A stretch of 40,001 bases of DNA from Escherichia virus TH20. Of the stretch, positions 14,762 to 40,001 are shown one piece after another (the stretch's first letter is position 1; each line of letters opens with the position of its first letter). The position numbers were made by a program, and so were the translations under genes. The stretch lies in the sequence record MT446394.1; one strand, written 5' to 3'. The notes below the pieces were generated by a model. The model did no database searches, was not told the origin of the DNA, and saw only the letters and a list, made by a program, of their open reading frames with translations.

Positions 14762-17044
14762 TTACTCCTTACCGATTAGTACGTTTGCGATACCCTCCAA
14801 TGAGACGTCATTGTACATCCCTCCGCGCTTCTCGATGTTGGCCTCTCGGTCAGCTCGACGTTTGTCACCAGCAGCTTTAGTCCCGACTATACGCGCTCGC
14901 TTGTTAGCGTCAAGTTCTGCCTGAGCGTATGCGGCATCTTGTGCCTTCTGCTGTTGTTCGCGGTAGAGTTTACCTACAAGTTCTTTATCGTAGCGAATAC
15001 GAATAGTCCCTGTAGCGTCTTGGAGGAAGATAGAGCCATTCTGTTCAACAACGGACAACTGAGAGTTCACTACCCAAGGGTTGGCCTTAATGAGCTGCTT
15101 ACGAGCGGTGTCGATAATGTCTCGACCAACCTGCCACGACTCTGGGTTATCCCCGACCATAAGCTGGTGCTTGGACACCATGCCGATGGACTTACCGTCC
15201 GAACCTTCAGATTGGAACGTTACGGTGTTCTCATTCAGCCAGCGTTGAGTCTGCTGAGTTGCAGCGTCAGCGTTACCTGTACGATAGTACCATGAGTCCC
15301 ATACCTTACGAGCACTTGCGTCCAGAGACGTTGGTAGACGAGACAACTTGGTGTTCTTGGAGTCGTTCTTCAGCTCCTGCCACGCCTTGTCTGACTCCAT
15401 GCGCATCTCACGGCTTTGACTTGCAGCTTGCTTATCAGCTTCAATCATCGTCTGAGGGTCCAGACCCATCTTGTCCATCTGGTCAAACGTAGAGAACAAC
15501 TGAGCTTGGTCAGGATACAGAGCAGCGAAACTTGAAGGGTCCTGAGTGTAGGCACGACGAAGAGATTCGAAGCGTTTCATCTTGTCTGGGTCGTACTGCC
15601 CACGGATGACAGCAGCTTGCCACTCACCAGCGGCGTCCTGAGTCAGCGTCTGGAAGGCATTACGGAACGGACCGTTGTTAGTGTCAGCTCTTAACAATGC
15701 CACCTTCTGAGCGTCCTTAGCAGCCTCAGGGATGTCCATCTGGTCAATCTGCTGTAGCTTAGCAGACGCATAGTTGTTCATGTCTGAACGCTTGAACTCT
15801 CCTGTAGCTTCAGATACCGGAAGGTCCTCATAGTTGGTGGACACGTTGTCACCAGCCAGACGTCGCTGATAAACTTGGTCAATGACCAGTTGCTTGTTCT
15901 GGGTCTGGATTAACTTCGTGTTCTCCTTTGCCTGTTCAGCAGACTTACGCTTTACCGCTTCCAGTAGTGTGACTTCGGCGTTAATAAGCATCTGGCGCTG
16001 AGGAGTGAGTTCTTCACCGGGTTGAAGCTGGTTGTTCTGCTCCTTGAGTTTTTGAATCTGGGCCAGACCGATGGTTGGGTCATCCTGAAGAATCGCAGAC
16101 TGAACGCCTAACGCCAAGTCTTCCTGATACTTAGCCACCAGTTTATACTCAGTACCTTGGGCCTCAACCATAGCAGCATTGAAGACGTCAGGTCCTACAA
16201 TCTCTTCGATGGTAGCGTCAACACCATTAAGGGTGATACGCTCGCCACGGACTTGCTGTAGGAAGTTTGAGCCTCCTGACTTCTGGATTGCGTCACGTAC
16301 CGTCTGGGCGATGACCTCTCGTGCTCGCTGGTCCGAAGGGATAGCAGCAGTTGTTAGACCATCCCGCAGGTAGGCCATGAAGGTCTTTCCAGACTCAGGA
16401 GAACGCATCAGGTCCCCATCGTTAAGGAACGAGTTCATCTCAATACGAGTGTTCAACATTGCTGTCTCTTCAGACTGCTTACTGAAATACTTATTGAAGG
16501 ACCCGTAGATAGCGATGTTTCTGTCCGTGATGTTATCGTTGAATCCACGCTGGAAGAACTCGTCGGTAGGGTTAATACCCGCCTCTTCAGCATAGGACTT
16601 AGCGGCATCCTGAAGTCGCTGGTGGCGATACTCTTCCATGTCCTGACGTGTACGGAACTCACCGTTCTGAATCTTAACGTTAATCTCGTCGTCTACAGCA
16701 AAGGCGGCATTACGACCAGTCTTGACTCGAAGTGCTTCCATAGCGTAAGGGTCGTCCTGATACAGCAATGTGCCGTTCTGGATAGCCTCACGTCTCTGCT
16801 GAGGTGTCAGTTTGCGGATAATCTCGTTAGACCGCTCGTCAGCTCTTGTCTTCTCATCGTCTTTGAACTGCTTGTACAATCCGGTCCCAGACTCAACGAA
16901 GTTGGTTAACGCACGAGCCAGCCCGGAGTCCCCAGTAGGAGCCTGAACGTTGGCTGCTTGATAGTTGACGGCGATAGTTTTACCCGGCGCTCTGCCGCGA
17001 CCCATAGTCCGATTAGCCAGAGCTGATTCAATATTACTAGCCAT
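14762..17044 (-). CDS. Internal virion (core) protein (T7 gp15-like), 760 aa
   Basis: Size and position between gp14 and gp16; GAGGAGG upstream. Confidence 0.9.
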   Translation of the reverse strand: MASNIESALANRTMGRGRAPGKTIAVNYQAANVQAPTGDSGLARALTNFVESGTGLYKQFKDDEKTRADERSNEIIRKLTPQQRREAIQNGTLLYQDDPYAMEALRVKTGRNAAFAVDDEINVKIQNGEFRTRQDMEEYRHQRLQDAAKSYAEEAGINPTDEFFQRGFNDNITDRNIAIYGSFNKYFSKQSEETAMLNTRIEMNSFLNDGDLMRSPESGKTFMAYLRDGLTTAAIPSDQRAREVIAQTVRDAIQKSGGSNFLQQVRGERITLNGVDATIEEIVGPDVFNAAMVEAQGTEYKLVAKYQEDLALGVQSAILQDDPTIGLAQIQKLKEQNNQLQPGEELTPQRQMLINAEVTLLEAVKRKSAEQAKENTKLIQTQNKQLVIDQVYQRRLAGDNVSTNYEDLPVSEATGEFKRSDMNNYASAKLQQIDQMDIPEAAKDAQKVALLRADTNNGPFRNAFQTLTQDAAGEWQAAVIRGQYDPDKMKRFESLRRAYTQDPSSFAALYPDQAQLFSTFDQMDKMGLDPQTMIEADKQAASQSREMRMESDKAWQELKNDSKNTKLSRLPTSLDASARKVWDSWYYRTGNADAATQQTQRWLNENTVTFQSEGSDGKSIGMVSKHQLMVGDNPESWQVGRDIIDTARKQLIKANPWVVNSQLSVVEQNGSIFLQDATGTIRIRYDKELVGKLYREQQQKAQDAAYAQAELDANKRARIVGTKAAGDKRRADREANIEKRGGMYNDVSLEGIANVLIGKE

Positions 17045-17055
17045 TAGTCCTCCTC

Positions 17056-17643
17056 TTAGCTATGACCTGTAGGTGTGCCTTTAGCAGCACTAATTGGTGC
17101 AGCACCACCAGAGCTGGACGCTCCAGCGATTGACTTACCAGCGGCGTAGCCTTGCATCCCGGCGTTAGCAACATTAAGTGCATGAGCCAGTGGGCTGGTC
17201 TTGATGATTTTACCTTGACCACGGATAGCAGACTTGGTGTTCTCAATGTTGGCGATACGGTTCCCAAATATAGCCGCATAGTCACGGTTGTAGCTTTCGG
17301 TAATCCCTGCTCGCTCCTTGACCGTATCTCCTTCGACCTGACGTTCAATCCTGTCCATAGAGTTACCTTCCAGACCGGACTCAGCCACCGCAGCTCTGAC
17401 CATACCCTGATTGCGGATACCGTTTAGCGTGGTCTCTGTCAGTTCAGCCATCTGCTGCTCCTTCAGGTCTCGCTCCTGCATCTTCAGGTTGGCGTCAGAG
17501 TAGTTCATCTGCTTAATCATCTCCTGAGACTGACGGTTCTGAGCATCAATTGCTGCACCTTCGGCCTTGGCCTGCTGGGATGCGGACATAGTGGCCCCGG
17601 CTACAGCCATGATCCCTAGACCGATGGATACTGGTTCACACAT
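17056..17643 (-). CDS. Internal virion protein (T7 gp14-like), 195 aa
   Basis: GNSMDRIERQVEGD...YNRDYAAIFG resembles remembered T7 gp14; GGAGGT upstream. Confidence 0.85.
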   Translation of the reverse strand: MCEPVSIGLGIMAVAGATMSASQQAKAEGAAIDAQNRQSQEMIKQMNYSDANLKMQERDLKEQQMAELTETTLNGIRNQGMVRAAVAESGLEGNSMDRIERQVEGDTVKERAGITESYNRDYAAIFGNRIANIENTKSAIRGQGKIIKTSPLAHALNVANAGMQGYAAGKSIAGASSSGGAAPISAAKGTPTGHS

Positions 17644-18037
17644 GGTTCACCTCCAGATAGTTGATAGCGTTTCTAAGCAACTGGACGTCATCCTTCAGCT
17701 TGCCTATAGCTTGATTGCAGTTGGTACATAGCAGCCCTCTAACCTTTCCAGTTGAATGGCAATGGTCTACCGCTAGTCTTCCTACAGACTCTGTACCATG
17801 ACAAATAGCACATGTTCCACCTTGCTCACGAAGCATTTTATCATACTCCTCAGGTGTTATTCCGTATCCTTTCTTCAGGTTATACCTCCTGTTGTGCTCT
17901 GGGGTTCTATCCTTCCGTATCTTGGACCAACAGCTTCTGCAATGAGGCTTGCGCCTGTTCGGGTCTTTCTTGGTGGCCTGTTTGTGAAACTCAGTGATTG
18001 GTTTCTCCAGACCACAAGTTAAACAAACCTTGGTCAT
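17636..18037 (-). CDS. HNH endonuclease (endonuclease VII-like), free-standing, between genes 13 and 14
   Basis: CAICH...LAVDHCHSTGKVRGLLCTNCNQAIG; likely start ATG 18037 (AAGGAG upstream); track start 18100 is GTG inside gene 13. Confidence 0.8.
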   Translation of the reverse strand: MTKVCLTCGLEKPITEFHKQATKKDPNRRKPHCRSCWSKIRKDRTPEHNRRYNLKKGYGITPEEYDKMLREQGGTCAICHGTESVGRLAVDHCHSTGKVRGLLCTNCNQAIGKLKDDVQLLRNAINYLEVNHV

Positions 18038-18039
18038 CT

Positions 18040-18495
18040 TTACTCCTTGGTGATTGTGAATAGAATGAATACTTCTCCAGTCACTGGACTTCTGGTCCAC
18101 TTATCGTCGTGGAACTTAGCGCCTATTGACTTGAGAAACCGGATGTGGGACGCATTGCCTTCCCAGACGTAGTTCCATAGTACCGGATAGTCCTCCAGCA
18201 TCTTGTCACGATACTCCATGATTCTCTCACGGAACTCTCGCTTACCTTTAGGTGGGAGACGCTCGGTCATTCTGGTTGTCAGGAACCAAACGTTGTCACC
18301 TTGGTTGCCGCCATAGGCGTAAATATCCCCAGTAGCGTTAGTTAAAACCACAGATGAAGACGTTAGGTGTGCTTGCAGCCTTTCAGTGAGACCCTCAGTG
18401 GTCCCGTAGTTGGCTTTACACTCCTCTAAGTCGTCATCTGTAAGTTGTGCAGCAGCGTGCCAAACGTCTACATCTGTAGCCTTGCGAATATACAT
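18040..18495 (-). CDS. Virion assembly / internal protein at the gene 13 position, 151 aa
   Basis: Assigned by position downstream of the phi13-type promoter; no motif recognised. Confidence 0.5.
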   Translation of the reverse strand: MYIRKATDVDVWHAAAQLTDDDLEECKANYGTTEGLTERLQAHLTSSSVVLTNATGDIYAYGGNQGDNVWFLTTRMTERLPPKGKREFRERIMEYRDKMLEDYPVLWNYVWEGNASHIRFLKSIGAKFHDDKWTRSPVTGEVFILFTITKE

Positions 18496-27184: not shown

Positions 27185-28051
27185 TTACATGGATGGTGTC
27201 CACAGGATGACCTCCTTTGACTTAGGGTCATAGTCAGAGGCTCGACAAATACGAGCGACCTGAGCTTGGACCAGAAGTTCCTCCTCGGTCATCCCAGCTT
27301 TAGCAGCCAGAGTCACCATGCAGTCCCACAGCGTCATGTCTTCACGCTTTGGATACTTCTTCCACTCAGTCTTAATCTGGCCTTTGTTCTTACCAGTCTT
27401 AAGCTCACGGCTCTCCTGCACGAAGTAGTACGGCTCGTCAAGGAACGCACGAGTGGTGTCCTCACCCATCCCCGGAATGCCACCGTAGCCATCTGTAGTG
27501 TCACCCTTGATGGTTTGCTCCATGTGCCAGTAGTCTGCCTCAGCAGTCGTATGACTCAGGATTTCACCAGTGGTTAACCAGAAGAACTCACAGTTCGGGA
27601 TGGTCTTGAAGTCCTTATCGCAGGATACCAGAACCGCATGATCACAGCCGACAATCTGAGGTCGGGTCCCGATGATGCCCATACAGTCATCACCTTCAAG
27701 CATAGGACGCAGGAAGCTGTTGAACCGTGGGTCAGCCATCACTTCGGCTACGAACTTCTTGTATCCTACAGGCTTGCGAGAACCTTTACGGTTGGCCTTA
27801 TAGGTAGGTAATATTGACTTGCGCCAGTTCACGTCATCGGTGAAGCACATCACAATCTTAGCGTCTTTCCACGCCTTTCGCTTCTTAATGATTTCAGCGA
27901 TGGTGTTCTCAAGGATACGACGCGCCTTGGCGTGGTCACAAATCAGAGTATAAATATCATCGCCCCAATCGGTCTCATCCTCAGCCGCAGCCATAGATGA
28001 AAACACTAAGTAGTCACCATCTAACACAAGAGCTACTTTCTTTTCGCTCAT
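27185..28051 (-). CDS. 5'-3' exonuclease (T7 gp6-like), 288 aa
   Basis: HAKAR.ILE, KANRK, PMLEGDD, SCDKDFKTIPNC, WDC...AKAGMTEE match T7 gp6; real start ATG 28051 (GGAGG upstream); track start 28105 is GTG. Confidence 0.9.
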   Translation of the reverse strand: MSEKKVALVLDGDYLVFSSMAAAEDETDWGDDIYTLICDHAKARRILENTIAEIIKKRKAWKDAKIVMCFTDDVNWRKSILPTYKANRKGSRKPVGYKKFVAEVMADPRFNSFLRPMLEGDDCMGIIGTRPQIVGCDHAVLVSCDKDFKTIPNCEFFWLTTGEILSHTTAEADYWHMEQTIKGDTTDGYGGIPGMGEDTTRAFLDEPYYFVQESRELKTGKNKGQIKTEWKKYPKREDMTLWDCMVTLAAKAGMTEEELLVQAQVARICRASDYDPKSKEVILWTPSM

Positions 28052-28257
28052 AGACAGCCTCCGTGTTGGTTCAGGAACTTGGTGCCAGCAGCGGTAATCT
28101 CCCACGCACCGTTGTTACGCCCGTCCATAGACAAGCAGCTAAGATGTCCACGACTCGCAGCCTCAGCCACAAGTGCAGCGTTGTTGCGCACATAGTTGGA
28201 CTGGAAGGTCTTCGGGCAGGACTTAAGGGCCGCAAGGACCCGTAAGTATTCACTCAT
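28048..28257 (-). CDS. T7 gp5.7-like protein, 69 aa
   Basis: LKSCPKTFQSNYVRNNAALVAEAASRGH...GAWEITA matches remembered T7 gp5.7 nearly residue for residue. Confidence 0.8.
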   Translation of the reverse strand: MSEYLRVLAALKSCPKTFQSNYVRNNAALVAEAASRGHLSCLSMDGRNNGAWEITAAGTKFLNQHGGCL

Positions 28258-28538
28258 TGCTTGACCTCGAATCGCAGGTTGGATACTCCGAACTTGCCAT
28301 CATCAAAGGCGTCTACCAGCTCCTCCTTGATGACCTTCTTGGCGGCAATCTCAAGGGCAGACTCAGGGCCTGACTCGATTGCTGCTTTGACCAGAGCCAA
28401 CTGAAGTCCATCCAGCTTCTCACCCTCAGCGTAGGCTTTAGTCATCTCAGCCAGTTGGCGACACATGGTCTCTTCTTCTTTTGAGTTGACAACCATCTTC
28501 AGGTCGAAACTTACACGAATACGTTTAGTAATAGCCAT
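28254..28538 (-). CDS. T7 gp5.5-like protein, 94 aa
   Basis: Position and remembered gp5.5-like pattern (MA.TKR..V.FD.KM, GEK.DG); ATG overlaps upstream stop. Confidence 0.65.
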   Translation of the reverse strand: MAITKRIRVSFDLKMVVNSKEEETMCRQLAEMTKAYAEGEKLDGLQLALVKAAIESGPESALEIAAKKVIKEELVDAFDDGKFGVSNLRFEVKQ

Positions 28539-28726
28539 TAGCTTTCTCCTTGGGATTCAATGTGATTGGTCTTTCCACACAGTCTGCACTGAGTTACTTT
28601 GGGCTTGCCATCCTGCGTGCAGTAGACAAGTACCCAATCTGGATGTTTGCACCGCGACTGATGTAGCTCTTCACGCCTGCGTGTTTCTTCAGCGAACTCT
28701 TCGTATGCGCTGTCATAATGACCCAT
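28538..28726 (-). CDS. Hypothetical small protein with Cys/His-rich zinc-ribbon-like motif, 62 aa
   Basis: SRCKHPDW...CTQDG...QCRLCGK; ATG 28726 with AAGGAG upstream, overlapping HNH stop. Confidence 0.45.
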   Translation of the reverse strand: MGHYDSAYEEFAEETRRREELHQSRCKHPDWVLVYCTQDGKPKVTQCRLCGKTNHIESQGES

Positions 28727-28992
28727 TAGTGACACTCCTTCTTAACAAGTTTGCGCTCGCGGTTCGTCTTAATGACGTGTTCGCGCTTTGGAATACACTG
28801 TAGGTGCTCTATGTTGCAGCACCCACGGTTCAAGCACAAATGGTCTATCTCATAGCCATCTGGTATAGGCCCACGCTTCTGCTTCCACACCCATCGGTGG
28901 AACATGAAGGCGAACTTGTTGCCCTTCCTGTAGCTTCCCATGGGTGTGGAAGCGTAGGGTCTGGGTTCGAGGGTCAATGACACTCTTTCCAC
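28726..28992 (-). CDS. HNH endonuclease, free-standing, after the DNA polymerase gene
   Basis: GYEIDHLCLNRGCCNIEHLQCIPKREH; start uncertain (GTG 28992 inside DNAP end, or ATG 28941). Confidence 0.7.
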   Translation of the reverse strand: MERVSLTLEPRPYASTPMGSYRKGNKFAFMFHRWVWKQKRGPIPDGYEIDHLCLNRGCCNIEHLQCIPKREHVIKTNRERKLVKKECH

Positions 28993-31145
28993 GTTGGTCC
29001 AATCTTACCCTCCGTATCAAGTTCACACTTGAAGTTATAGAAGCGTCCGACCTCACGCATCGCCTCTTGAGCAATACGGACGACATCTTCTGCTATCTCC
29101 TGAGTACGACACGCTATCTGCAATTCATCGTGAATCCAAGCCATTAGCGCAAAGTCTCCGTCCCATCCGTTACCGTAACCAGCCTCTTCAAGTTTCTTCT
29201 CAGTAAGTACCATCCAGTGCTTACAGACTACCGCACCATCACCCTGAAGTAATGCGTTCAGTGCTGAGTGTGGAGACCGTATGTGGATACGGCGACCGTC
29301 AAGTCCACGCAACCAACGGCGTTTCCACTTAACGATGTTCTCTCCGTCCACCCACTTAGAGTCTGATATTAACGTATTACTCACAGCTTCCCTGAGGTCC
29401 TTGATGGCTGGTGTGCCCTCAATGAATTTCTTCATGAGAGCTGAACCTTCCTTCTTACCACCGCCGACTATCAGTCCAATCTTAGCGGCCCCTGCACCAT
29501 ACAGGAACGCATAGATGAACGTCTTAGCGTTGTTACGGAAAGCATCATGGTCGTGGTTCGACTTATCGCGTGGGACGTTAGGTGCTAACCCAGCGTTTAC
29601 TGCGTTGGCCCAGTGGATGTCACCTTCGACCACAGTCTTCGCATATGCACCACCATCAAACGGAGCCGCTCGGTTCCCCAGACAACGAAGCTCAAGACCT
29701 GAGGCATCCACACCTACTTGAATCCAAGGGTCTGGCTTACCGTCCTTCTTGTTCCACGCTGCACCGAAAGCACCACGGCAAGTCTCACCATACGGAGCAC
29801 CGTTAGCAGGGACCTGAGCCATGTTTGGTGAACTATGAGTCGCACGTCCGGTTACTGCCCCGCATGGGTTGATTGAACCGTGCATACGTCCGTCTGGACC
29901 TACAAGTTTCAACCATGCGTTCTTACCTTCAGCAGCCTGCCCGATTCTCTTCTGGACTACCAGATACTCACGGACCAGCTCTACGCAAGCCTGAGCCTCT
30001 GCGTCTGGTAACTTAACGTGTTCTAACGTCTCGTCATCGACTACAGGTTTCCCAGTGTCAGTGAAGTCCACAGGCTCCCATCCACGCTCTATCAGGACTT
30101 TCGCTAAGTGGTCGCCGCTTCCCGGATTAAACTCAACGTAAGTGATGGGCGTGAATGGTGCCCCCTCCATCGTGTCTCGTGAGTCGAACTCGCAAGGCTC
30201 CAGACCTAAGCGTTGTGCTTTGTTCTTCGGTTTCTTAAAGATGCCACCGACCTTAGGATACACGACTCGCGGATACTTCGGAAGGTCCTTACCTGTCCGT
30301 GGATGCCTGAAGAACTCCTTGCCTCCCTTTGGTGCATACCAGCTACCGAAAGTCGAGCGCAGCTTGTCCAGCAACTCCGCACGTTTGACAGTGAGTTCAC
30401 GATATAAGCCTTCGACCATCTCGGTGTTCATCGGATAGCCGTTACGTTCCATCTTCGCACAGGTCCACGCAGCATCATGTTCCAGACGCAACGCATAAAT
30501 CTGTTCGAAAGCGAACTGTTCAGACTGGAAGTAATACTTGTCAGTCAGGAACTTCTTGAACAACGCCAGTGTGACCACAACGTCTTGAACGTTATAGTCC
30601 AGCATCTCCTGAGATGGGAACAACCATTCGTCCCCAGCCTTATATTCGATACCCTCGGCCTTGCACTTGGCAACGTAATCATGTTTGTACTCACCCTTCA
30701 TCTCACCGAGACGATAACCCCAAGCCTCAAGAGACTGACGTCCCATCATCTTAGGTGGCAGACGACCCGCTTTCACCGCGCCCATGTCTGAGAACTTAAT
30801 GTTTGGATACATCAAGCGGCCCAGCACCAAGGTATCAATCATCTTGTGTTTCGGGAAGTTAAAACGTTTCCCAAAGTACAGACGCTTCAGCTTGTCTATA
30901 GCCGGGACGTCATAGTTGATACCATTATGGAAGACAAGCATACCATCAGGTGATGCGGCAATCTCTTCCACCTTCTGCACATACTCTTTGAAGCCACCGA
31001 CGATACCGACCATCGGAGCTACCCCATACTTAAGGGTCTCATTCGACTCGGCATTAATCAGGACCCCACAGTGAAACTGGGACACGGTGTCAAGGAGACC
31101 GTTGGTCTCGATGTCCGAACCCCAAATATCCTTAAGGTCAAACAT
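28974..31145 (-). CDS. DNA polymerase (T7 gp5-like), 723 aa
   Basis: Co-linear with T7 gp5 end to end; real start ATG 31145 (GGAGGA 6 nt upstream); track start 31181 is GTG inside the stem-loop. Confidence 0.97.
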   Translation of the reverse strand: MFDLKDIWGSDIETNGLLDTVSQFHCGVLINAESNETLKYGVAPMVGIVGGFKEYVQKVEEIAASPDGMLVFHNGINYDVPAIDKLKRLYFGKRFNFPKHKMIDTLVLGRLMYPNIKFSDMGAVKAGRLPPKMMGRQSLEAWGYRLGEMKGEYKHDYVAKCKAEGIEYKAGDEWLFPSQEMLDYNVQDVVVTLALFKKFLTDKYYFQSEQFAFEQIYALRLEHDAAWTCAKMERNGYPMNTEMVEGLYRELTVKRAELLDKLRSTFGSWYAPKGGKEFFRHPRTGKDLPKYPRVVYPKVGGIFKKPKNKAQRLGLEPCEFDSRDTMEGAPFTPITYVEFNPGSGDHLAKVLIERGWEPVDFTDTGKPVVDDETLEHVKLPDAEAQACVELVREYLVVQKRIGQAAEGKNAWLKLVGPDGRMHGSINPCGAVTGRATHSSPNMAQVPANGAPYGETCRGAFGAAWNKKDGKPDPWIQVGVDASGLELRCLGNRAAPFDGGAYAKTVVEGDIHWANAVNAGLAPNVPRDKSNHDHDAFRNNAKTFIYAFLYGAGAAKIGLIVGGGKKEGSALMKKFIEGTPAIKDLREAVSNTLISDSKWVDGENIVKWKRRWLRGLDGRRIHIRSPHSALNALLQGDGAVVCKHWMVLTEKKLEEAGYGNGWDGDFALMAWIHDELQIACRTQEIAEDVVRIAQEAMREVGRFYNFKCELDTEGKIGPTWKECH

Positions 31146-31160
31146 GGTTAATCCTCCGTT

Positions 31161-31205
31161 TAGTCTAATCATAAAGGCCACTCGATGTGAATGACCTTGA
31201 GTCTA
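31161..31205 (-). promoter_or_regulatory. Conserved stem-loop, candidate RNase III site upstream of DNA polymerase gene
   Basis: Second copy of AATCATAAAGGCCAC...ATGACCTTGAGTCTA. Confidence 0.4.
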
Positions 31206-31208
31206 GAC

Positions 31209-33088
<1,880 letters not shown>

Positions 33089-34151: not shown

Positions 34152-34603
34152 CACTTAACTCCTTTCTTCTTTGGAATGAGTATACCCGAAGGCAGACGTA
34201 CAGTCGCCTCTCGAAGCCACTCAACCGGGATGAACTTATCGGCATACTTATAGCCGTTCTTTTCGCACCATGCGCCATACGTGGTCGGAGACCCTTTGTA
34301 TAGCTTGGAGCGGGAACTTGAGAACACGAACCGGATGTCTAACTCTGGGTGCTGTTCTCGTACCAGAAGATGCTTCTTACGGTCATCACTATCGAAGATA
34401 CCTTTGGTCTCCACGATGATACCGTTAGGAAGGATAAAGTCCGGCGTGTAGAAGTGGTCCGAAGCAGGAACAACGTACCCAATCTTATATGCTTCATACT
34501 CTGCCTTGACTCCGTTCTTCTCGAGCCACTCTTGGTTCTTTGCTTCCAGTCCAGAGCGGTAAGTCCCGACTGCGTGTCCTCGTGATGCTGACCACTTAGC
34601 CAT
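34151..34603 (-). CDS. Endonuclease I, Holliday junction resolvase (T7 gp3-like), 150 aa
   Basis: FRSGLE, YTPDFxLPNGIxVETKG, SDDRKKHLLxREQHPELDIRxVFSSSRxKLYKGSPT match T7 gp3; real start ATG 34603 (GGAG upstream); track start is TTG. Confidence 0.9.
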   Translation of the reverse strand: MAKWSASRGHAVGTYRSGLEAKNQEWLEKNGVKAEYEAYKIGYVVPASDHFYTPDFILPNGIIVETKGIFDSDDRKKHLLVREQHPELDIRFVFSSSRSKLYKGSPTTYGAWCEKNGYKYADKFIPVEWLREATVRLPSGILIPKKKGVK

Positions 34604-35036
34604 GTTTGATTCTCCATATAATTGCTTGCGGAGTAACACCAAACATCTTGGCTAAATCTACAGGCTTCATATCAGACTTCAGGATAAACTCTACGTCTTC
34701 CTCGGTCAGCTTAGTCTTCTGGTTAGCTTCTCCTTTGAACACTGGCGGTTTCGAATGACGACCCCGCTTCACGCAATCCTGCATGTTGTCTGTCTGAGTC
34801 CCGACTTCAAGATGTTCCGGGTTACAGCAGCAAGGGTTGTCACATTTATGGCGAACTAGGAGGCCATCAGGTATTGGACCACAGTGCTCTCTATAAGAGA
34901 CTCTATGCGCGTAGTCCTGTTTCTGGTTGCCTATGGATATTCTACCATAACCTTGTTTGTACCGGGAGCGTTGCCACTCCCAGCAGCCAGAAGGAGAAAC
35001 TATAGAGTAAGCCTCCAGTTTCTCTTTCAGTGTCAT
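34596..35036 (-). CDS. HNH homing-endonuclease-like protein, free-standing, between SSB and endonuclease I genes
   Basis: HRVSYREHCGPIPDGLLVRHKCDNPCCCNPEHLEVGTQTDN; ATG overlaps SSB stop (TAATG). Confidence 0.8.
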   Translation of the reverse strand: MTLKEKLEAYSIVSPSGCWEWQRSRYKQGYGRISIGNQKQDYAHRVSYREHCGPIPDGLLVRHKCDNPCCCNPEHLEVGTQTDNMQDCVKRGRHSKPPVFKGEANQKTKLTEEDVEFILKSDMKPVDLAKMFGVTPQAIIWRIKHG

Positions 35037-38828: not shown

Positions 38829-40001
38829 TTAAGCGAATGCAAAGTCTGAAGACAAGATGTCTTCGATATTCAGTTTACCTTTCTTCGGAAGCTCTGGCAA
38901 CTTATCGCGCTGGCTCTCATGAAGCTGGTATTCAAACTGCTCATAGAAGTCAAGCAGCACATCGTTGTCTCGGTAGGTCTCGACCATCGTCTCACGGACA
39001 CCACGGAACAGATACTCAGCGTCAGCCGGGATGGTCCCGAAGCTATCATGAATCACTGCGAATGACATCACGTCATACTTGCGATGAGTGTGGACTACAG
39101 TCTTGCGTAGGTGGCTACCATCTTGTGAGTGGACGAAGTTCGGGCTAATGCCTGACTCCTGCTTGTGCTTGTCCAGCTCTTTCTTCGTGCCTTTGTTGAC
39201 GGTAGGCTGAAGGTTGAATGACCCTAAGAACATCAGGTTCAGACGAGTGGTATCCTTCTTGCGGTATTCCTGCCAGACCGGGAAACCATCAGGTGTGACC
39301 CAGTGTACCGGAAGGCAAGGCTTCAGGATTTCACCCGTCTTCTTGTCCTTCACTTCAGCAGCCAGCAGCTTGGCAGCACCTTGAAGCCACTTCATAGCGT
39401 CTACCGCAGCAACTACGGTCACGCTCACAGCTTCCCAAATCATCTTAGCCATGAATCGGGACGCTTGGCTTGGCTCGGTGAACATAGCTCCAGACCCTGC
39501 GTCAATTGCGGGCATCACGATGTCCTCGTAAACTTGGTCTGCGAAGCCGTACTCTTTCGACCCGTAGGCCAGAGTCATGACTGAGCGCTTAGTAACCTTG
39601 CGTGACATACCGTAAGTCAGCCACTGCCGGGCCAGCTCTCGTGTCCCCAGCTTGAGACGTTCGGTAATCTCACCAGTTTTCTTGTCCTCGTGAGTTACCA
39701 TCTCGTTGTCCGTGCCGTTAACCAACAGGACTTTAAGCTCCTCCTCAATGCGGTCAGACACGATGCGGTAGATGTCTTGGACCTTACCGGAAGGCGTCAG
39801 GTTTACTGCATGTCCACCGATGTGATCACGAAGCATCGCGCTGAAGTGCTGAATCCCAGAGCAGGACCCATCGAAAGCTATCGGCAGCGAGCAGGAGTAA
39901 GACAAACCGTGGTGCATTACGCCAGCATACTCGAAGCAGAACGCTAGGAAGCAGAACGGAGAGTCTAACTTACCCCACCACTCAATGCTGTCCATCGGTG
40001 C
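38829..40001 (-). CDS. T7-type RNA polymerase (gene 1), C-terminal 390 codons plus stop; the part above 39194 duplicates 1-807
   Basis: Translation ends ...DILSSDFAFA as T7 RNAP; contains HQESGI.PNFVHSQDGSHLR and IHDSFGT active-site region; stop at 38829. Confidence 0.95.
   Translation of the reverse strand, partial: APMDSIEWWGKLDSPFCFLAFCFEYAGVMHHGLSYSCSLPIAFDGSCSGIQHFSAMLRDHIGGHAVNLTPSGKVQDIYRIVSDRIEEELKVLLVNGTDNEMVTHEDKKTGEITERLKLGTRELARQWLTYGMSRKVTKRSVMTLAYGSKEYGFADQVYEDIVMPAIDAGSGAMFTEPSQASRFMAKMIWEAVSVTVVAAVDAMKWLQGAAKLLAAEVKDKKTGEILKPCLPVHWVTPDGFPVWQEYRKKDTTRLNLMFLGSFNLQPTVNKGTKKELDKHKQESGISPNFVHSQDGSHLRKTVVHTHRKYDVMSFAVIHDSFGTIPADAEYLFRGVRETMVETYRDNDVLLDFYEQFEYQLHESQRDKLPELPKKGKLNIEDILSSDFAFA
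39195..40001. repeat. Window-end duplication, copy 2 (same sequence as 1-807)
   Basis: See copy 1. Confidence 0.9.

Follow-up and report, generated by a model that had tools for sequence, protein, structure and literature searches.

A degenerate, most likely inactive HNH homing-endonuclease gene of the T3 gene 5.3 type at the DNA polymerase stop codon of a Kayfunavirus

Phage T3 gp5.3 is a characterised free-standing homing endonuclease; its gene reportedly invades the empty sites of related phages, and the enzyme is said to cut intronless polymerase genes at the position of the intron-encoded I-TslI. Published accounts describe gp5.3 as a homing endonuclease with polymorphism between sister phages and add that the polymerase intron of phage K1F also carries a homing endonuclease (PMC4925675); T3 and T7-like phages have likewise been cited for homing-endonuclease/intron relationships and for gp5.3 homing endonucleases (PMC10055350). 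The slot between gene 5 and gene 5.5 that is occupied by T3 gp5.3 (and by gp5.3 of phiYeO3-12 and SH2) is also that of the HNH open reading frame (ORF) analysed here; the T3 protein and the proteins of our type are alike in being small and in having no extra DNA-binding domain, and both genes are polymorphic among close relatives. T7 gp5.3 is encoded in the same slot but is a PD-(D/E)XK nuclease, unrelated in fold and catalytic chemistry, and no sequence similarity was found between T7-type gp5.3 and the HNH protein. The HNH protein of the K1F intron (I-TslI type, also in PhiI and W31) has a core homologous to that of our type and is tied to the same polymerase site, the H/DE codons of motif C, but its gene lies within a group I intron that interrupts the polymerase gene, and it has a C-terminal extension of ~40 aa that is absent from the free-standing form. 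I-HmuI (PDB 1U3E), the ZRANB3 HNH domain and the GVE2 HNH protein (His-Me finger) are very distant (13–15% identity).

The window, that is, the whole stretch of 40,001 nucleotides of MT446394.1 (Escherichia virus TH20) that was analysed, holds a complete T7-like Kayfunavirus genome with its genes on the minus strand. Positions 1–807 are an exact repeat of 39195–40001 (0 mismatches over 807 nt), so the genome is 39,194 bp long, the window wraps round it, and any feature in the first 807 bases occurs again in the last 807. The nearest GenBank relatives of the genome are Kayfunavirus phages, at ~93.5% identity. Coordinates of the locus are collected in Table 1. Elsewhere in the genome, a second, apparently full-length HNH_3 gene (34599–35036, minus strand; Pfam E = 1.6e-15) occupies the "gene 2.8" slot, flanked by the genes for single-strand-binding protein and endonuclease I, and keeps an N-terminal GCWEW...GYGR segment of the type missing from the ORF at 28726–28992. 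Among the tail and internal-core genes, an ORF at 17639–18040 (minus strand) matches Endonuclease VII (PF02945, E = 2.2e-28) and is probably the third free-standing homing-type nuclease of this genome.

Table 1. Features of the polymerase-gene 5.5 region, in window coordinates
Feature	Position	Strand	Remarks
Primase/helicase	31385..33085	-	
DNA polymerase gene (gene 5)	28974..31181	-	PF00476, E = 1.3e-37; stop TGA at 28976-28974
Polymerase codons MAWIH/DEL, homologue of the K1F intron site	29121..29144	-	intron point 29130/29129
GGAGGG Shine-Dalgarno sequence	29008..29013	-	polymerase codons ACG GAG GGT
TTG, candidate ancestral nuclease start	29000..29002	-	within the last 10 codons of the polymerase
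Frameshifted 50-aa peptide from TTG (LDQRGKSVIDPRTQTLRFHT followed by HGKLQEG... to the stop)	28850..29002	-	translation
Cassette-linked polymerase end AAAGAGTGTCATTGA (K E C H stop)	28974..28988	-	
Surviving HNH-domain ORF	28726..28992	-	ORF list and Pfam HNH_3
Deletion junction CCC	28942..28944	-	
HNH_3 domain	~28774-28905	-	inside ORF 28726..28992
Second copy of polymerase end, "empty-site" version AAGGAGTGTCACTAATG	28724..28740	-	at cassette 3' edge
62-aa Cys-rich ORF, separate small cassette	28538..28726	-	variable among relatives
Gene 5.5 homologue	28254..28538	-	directly abuts polymerase in cassette-free relatives
Gene 5.7	28048..28257	-	
Exonuclease	27185..28105	-	

The HNH motif to which a sequence-only reading had pointed (GYEIDHLCLNRGCCNIEHL) lies in an ORF of 88 codons counted from a GTG at 28992, which is, as that reading had placed it, inside the coding end of the polymerase gene (by 19 nt) and in a different frame; the first start codon beyond the polymerase stop is an internal ATG at 28941, 33 nt away. 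Pfam HNH_3 (PF13392) matches residues 30–73 with E = 3.2e-19 (68.7 bits; cut-off 24.8) over profile positions 2–45 of 46, a match far beyond chance that confirms the motif, and zf-His_Me_endon gives a weak match to the same ORF. The product is 71% identical to T3 gp5.3 over 82 aa (E = 2e-44), and an intact Kayfunavirus allele (93 aa when read from the first ATG) shares 86.7% identity with the product of T3 15201–15470 (gene 5.3 HNH endonuclease) and ~51% with that of the HNH gene within the K1F split polymerase gene. Judged by sequence relationship, location and a presence/absence polymorphism with linked markers, the ORF belongs to the T3 gene-5.3-type homing-endonuclease family, whose location after the polymerase is known; no intron was found in the window polymerase, whose ORF is continuous through MAWIHDEL while that of K1F is a joined CDS, so the gene is not placed with the I-TslI type. 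A complete coding sequence, with the conserved N-terminus (pattern TLRFH.MPTGC..C.SH...DGYFRY) and a functional start, is not found in the window copy. As a degenerate member of an experimentally studied family, the ORF is of low novelty.

The start of the ORF had been called ambiguous between GTG 28992 and ATG 28941, rightly so: neither has a usable Shine-Dalgarno (SD) sequence and neither appears to be ancestral. The anti-SD duplex amounts to -6.1 kcal/mol for GTG 28992, at an unusable spacing of ~15 nt, and to +0.7 kcal/mol for ATG 28941, compared with -10.0 kcal/mol at a spacing of 5 nt for the TTG at 29002. The HNH frame is open back to this TTG in the eleven intact or near-intact alleles of the window type that were examined, the TTG is taken as the gene start in the annotation of MopsHU1, and cassette-free genomes have the synonymous codons ACC GAA GGT in place of those that contain GGAGGG. 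In the window, the TTG and GTG 28992 are in different frames, the TTG being in the third frame relative to the polymerase and the HNH ORF. Over the 31 nt from the polymerase stop to the first ATG, pN/pS is 0.15 in the TTG frame versus 1.1 and 3.1 in the other two; the value of 3.1 is that of the GTG 28992 frame, which has a stop codon in two alleles, and by this comparison the GTG frame was not coding in the ancestor. In intact alleles the 31-nt segment encodes ..RTQTLRFHT, the counterpart of MGGVATLRFHK in T3, such that TLRFH[KT]MPTGC is common to the N-termini of the window type and of T3. The two differ in that T3 gene 5.3 has its own SD and an ATG 10 nt past the polymerase stop, whereas the window-type allele starts at the TTG inside the polymerase gene. 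The N-terminus of intact alleles is strongly conserved (TLRFHTMPTGCIVCVSHKRNQDGYFRYS): across its 27 codons (TLRFH.MPTGCIVCVSHKRNQDGYFRY), pS is 0.29–0.84 versus a pN of 0–0.095, and a homologue of 62% identity, with an ATG overlapping its polymerase stop, keeps the same codons; this pattern indicates strong purifying selection across genera on the residues that the window copy has lost.

GenBank annotation of the HNH gene is inconsistent, with an internal-Met start, a reverse-strand ORF or nothing called despite the open TTG frame; the records concerned are Pipis (L150 in our set, 536–751), TM1 (L154, 536–751), UFJF_EcSW4 (L006, 1044–1262), L151 and L153, and in Pipis and TM1 the Met equivalent to ATG 28941 was called as the start even though the alleles are full-length. 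A 65-aa database protein (P0006) that begins at this same Met was considered as proof of a functional short form and rejected as a gene-caller artefact, since its contig has a full-length ORF with an ATG that overlaps the stop of the polymerase.

Compared with T3 gene 5.3, the window copy is short of 22 codons at its N-terminal end and no longer in frame with its own start. A window-private deletion of 65 bp, not a multiple of 3, between short direct repeats (CCATG/CCCATG) takes out 22 conserved codons (MPTGCIVCVSHKRNQDGYFRYS), those of the first Met and the N-terminal Cys among them, and breaks the frame, so that the HNH domain is no longer in phase with the native TTG; translation from the TTG now gives LDQRGKSVIDPRTQTLRFHT, followed by 30 residues of unrelated sequence and a stop at 28852–28850. 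The start looks ambiguous because the deletion cut the HNH domain off from its ancestral TTG, leaving only GTG 28992 and ATG 28941, which lack an SD. The junction sequence was not found elsewhere in GenBank phages (50,697 records), IMG/VR or JGI metagenomes. The core differs from that of the nearest allele, SP7, by only 2 nt, which marks the deletion as recent; intactness and constraint are therefore not to be judged from the window copy alone. The sole window-unique substitution among 19 alleles is a Glu-to-Lys change (28882–28884) at a position that is Glu in the 18 others, counted here as a likely sign of relaxed constraint or decay. Independent decay is seen in SP7, with a 1-nt deletion in the same N-terminal region, and in KM02, with an in-frame GGA-to-TGA nonsense codon, and from these alleles it appears that the HNH gene is independently inactivated in at least three genomes. 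We conclude that the window copy is a degenerate T3 gene-5.3-type HNH homing-endonuclease gene and most likely inactive. The reading of the ORF as a working gene is thus not supported, given the frame-breaking loss of the conserved N-terminal 22 codons, and the decayed pseudogene that had been named as the alternative to it is largely what was found, in the deletion and the lost link to the start, with translation by reinitiation left as an unlikely rival. What speaks against decay is that the 88 codons are free of stops and frameshifts, that the catalytic residues D50, H51, N60, H63 and H72 are all kept, and that a 71-aa product from ATG 28941 is conceivable at a low level via termination-reinitiation.

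The HNH catalytic His, structural Asn and metal-binding His/Asn are all found in a predicted beta-beta-alpha fold. D50-H51, N60, H63 and H72 are invariant or nearly so in the family alignment, and the AlphaFold2 model of the window ORF has strands at 47–51 and 64–68 and a helix at 69–87, with a core pLDDT of 76–89 and residues 1–23 predicted to be disordered. A model of a full-length homologue (mean pLDDT ~69) adds three N-terminal strands and a helix to the beta-beta-alpha core and matches HNH structures. The confidence of the models is only modest because there are too few relatives for a deep alignment (8 were returned by a word search of 5.8 billion proteins). Direct sequence matches to solved structures were marginal (I-HmuI, E = 0.41, and spurious hits to a TCR and a glycosidase); the weak I-HmuI profile match aligns the lost segment with the N-terminal, DNA-contacting strands of I-HmuI. 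The family also has a Cys/His-rich motif, H-x-C-x4-C-x4-H, that resembles zinc loops of the I-PpoI type, although the Pfam match is weak; the analogy with the I-PpoI structure suggests a zinc site with the deleted N-terminal Cys as a putative fourth ligand.

The rival explanation that survives best is that a truncated HNH protein, of 71 aa from ATG 28941 or 88 aa from GTG 28992, is still made, for example by reinitiation, and nicks or cleaves DNA, providing some homing or exclusion of competitors. The ORF does retain all HNH-motif residues and the predicted beta-beta-alpha-metal core, but the 22 residues that it lacks, besides being conserved across genera, hold the only upstream Cys and the three beta-strands whose counterpart in I-HmuI is, by alignment, the DNA-contacting N-terminal sheet, and the Glu shared by the other alleles is replaced by Lys. 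As for expression, ATG 28941 stands at the same distance from the polymerase stop as the MPTGC ATG of intact alleles, and neither a promoter nor a terminator was found inside the cassette or between this ATG and the polymerase transcript (the promoter scan covered sigma-70-type promoters only); yet both start codons lack an SD, the GTG frame is not the ancestral one, and ribosomes from the strong TTG site would pass ATG 28941 in another frame. In other phage enzymes, small HNH nicking domains (~76 aa) may show activity, according to one report (PMC8845596). Weighing these points, we regard a truncated but active enzyme as improbable.

A megablast search with the region matched 180 phage records, in which the distance from the polymerase stop to gene 5.5 varies greatly, and 6 GenBank and 23 IMG/VR loci were aligned. 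Among the Kayfunavirus loci, the gap is -1, 104, ~160, ~312–323, 375 or 435–499 nt. At the empty site (CR44b and many others) the polymerase ends in ...TGGAAGGAGTGTCACTAATGGCT, its stop overlapping the ATG of gene 5.5. CY1 has a small ORF only (~160 nt), MopsHU1, SH3 and others have the HNH cassette alone (~312–323 nt), and the window, SP7 and UFJF_EcSW4 have the HNH cassette together with a small ORF (435–499 nt); a cassette of the SFPH2/YZ1 type measures 375 nt, and Penshu1 has a remnant of 104 nt. On this alignment, the HNH gene is a presence/absence cassette sited exactly at the polymerase stop codon. The filled site is laid out as ...AAAGAGTGTCATTGA[cassette]AAGGAGTGTCACTAATGG, and owing to the second copy of the polymerase end at the cassette 3' edge, the HNH ORF ends in KECH and a stop, that is, in the last four residues of the polymerase, and the next gene retains its SD and overlapping ATG. 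T3 gene 5.3 does not run into such a duplicated end, and the 3' ends of HNH ORFs differ (AAGGAGAAGACTAATGG in other alleles, AAGAAATAAAGGAG in T3); with endings so varied, the 3' joint looks like the result of recombination within SD-like microhomology.

Mosaic HNH alleles are found in LI10P1, Emlis, pO91 and others (L009/L010/L028/L033/L156 in our set): their 5' half is T3-like, diverged, and has its own SD and ATG (MGGVATLRFHK), their 3' half is ≥95% identical to the window-type allele, and the polymerase haplotype to which they are linked, IMAFVH, is a third one. The 62-aa Cys-rich ORF between the HNH remnant and gene 5.5 (C..C...CxxC, beginning MGHYDSAYEEF...) has no Pfam match. At its slot, relatives have an unrelated 52-aa ORF (MAKTYSEQEVK...WWCGHEE...) or nothing, each small cassette there terminates with GGAGAANNCTAATGG, and the SP7 annotation gives a reverse-strand ORF only.

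The 375-nt cassette encodes a PD-(D/E)XK nuclease (PF11645, E = 5.8e-11) that is 48% identical to T7 gp5.3 (E = 5e-34). Its gene shares the TTG and SD with the HNH gene and lies next to the same polymerase 3' haplotype as in the window; the first ~10 codons ((M)DQRGK..ID) are common to the two genes, and the two cassettes diverge one base past the polymerase stop. The 104-nt stretch of Penshu1 is the PD-(D/E)XK gene internally deleted between TTCACTG repeats. In the records this gene is a "hypothetical protein" or unannotated (L012–L014, ~2073–2480; Penshu1, L005, 1027–1131). From these alignments, the "5.3 slot" holds a T3-type nuclease in some genomes and a T7-type nuclease in others, on one and the same polymerase haplotype. 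A joint reading would take the 30 nt with which the polymerase gene of Kayfunaviruses ends (GGAGGG, 5 nt, TTG, TGA stop) as a shared "docking and expression platform" for two unrelated nucleases and, in addition, the window HNH protein as still made by reinitiation with some activity; taken together, we find this doubtful. If the platform reading were true, selfish nuclease genes would be swapped as cassettes while their expression stays coupled to translation of the polymerase.

That homing endonucleases often target the polymerase gene of relatives had also been raised in the sequence-only reading, and this connection is well founded, for the presence of the cassette is perfectly linked to a variant polymerase 3' end, which takes in the site of the K1F intron with its homologous HNH gene. 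The K1F intron lies between the His and Asp codons of MAWVH/DELQ, and the window has Ile (ATT) instead of Val at this site. A haplotype block that starts ~80 nt ahead of the intron site and runs through to the polymerase stop separates the cassette-bearing from the cassette-free Kayfunavirus loci aligned. All 18 HNH-bearing genomes have WIH or FVH (LMAWIH in 12 of the window type, YMAWIH in T3 and IMAFVH in 5 of the LI10P1 type), compared with MAWVH in 17 of the 22 intron-free genomes that lack the HNH gene, including T7 with its PD-(D/E)XK gene, counts that are not independent, the genomes being related to one another. The five exceptions are all WIH and consist of three genomes with the alternative nuclease, the remnant-bearing Penshu1 and a recombinant; intron-free genomes with neither a nuclease gene nor the linked haplotype have WVH, as do two intron-bearing genomes at the exon junction. 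The association of three deviant haplotypes with one nuclease family fits a target-site immunity that is co-converted with the gene. We infer that MAWIH/DEL marks the cleavage site of gene-5.3-type nucleases, and the WIH polymerase of the window is probably a cleavage-resistant allele. The recombinant (L016, IMGVR_UViG_2757321099_000001) has no nuclease gene; its polymerase 3' end carries the cassette-linked haplotype, WIH included, until ~75 nt short of the stop, where it switches to that of cassette-free genomes, as if a crossover had taken place between the presumed site of cleavage and the cassette.

It could also be that the phage has an intact 5.3-type gene and that the gap reflects an assembly error or a deletion variant present in a minority of the lysate, as the short direct repeats (CCATG) that flank the deletion and the absence of its junction from the databases searched might suggest. 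However, a 65-bp loss between 5-bp repeats is typical of a genuine deletion, the alternative cassette of Penshu1 has an analogous repeat-bounded deletion, the same copy bears a private non-synonymous change, and there is no sign of low quality in the window, the two copies of the wrap-around overlap being identical; an artefact is very unlikely. That the gene is a conserved, non-selfish accessory nuclease of the replication module (e.g., a helper in host-DNA breakdown or packaging), as its place in a DNA-metabolism operon and the packaging roles of some phage HNH proteins might hint, is barely credible, since most close relatives lack it at a precise empty site, an unrelated PD-(D/E)XK nuclease replaces it in other genomes, it has been inactivated repeatedly and it is tightly linked to a polymerase haplotype, which is the signature of a homing element rather than of a required function.

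For the preferred reading, a degenerate homing-endonuclease gene, we propose the following course of events. In intact copies, the nuclease would be translated from the TTG, with its GGAGGG SD, in the last 10 polymerase codons. During mixed infection, it would cut the cassette-free polymerase gene near the MAWVH/DE codons, ~155 bp upstream, and repair from the cassette-bearing genome would copy the nuclease gene along with the polymerase 3' end, including the resistant WIH, the synonymous changes that create the SD and the TGA stop. The window phage would have kept the converted, probably resistant polymerase allele, with the active homing enzyme most likely gone, and its copy would represent the degeneration stage of the homing-endonuclease life cycle.

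These results leave the current understanding unchanged, the pattern agreeing with what is known from T3, T7 and T4. For annotation, the ORF should be labelled a truncated or pseudogenised HNH homing endonuclease of the gene 5.3 type and not an active enzyme, and the polymerase 3' end, as DNA that appears to have been horizontally converted, should be excluded from phylogenies. Within a single phage genus, the locus presents the homing-endonuclease life cycle as a compact natural series, with unoccupied sites, two alternative nuclease families that share a polymerase haplotype, independently inactivated genes (at least three of the HNH type and one of the alternative nuclease) and a recombinant that has kept the polymerase allele alone.
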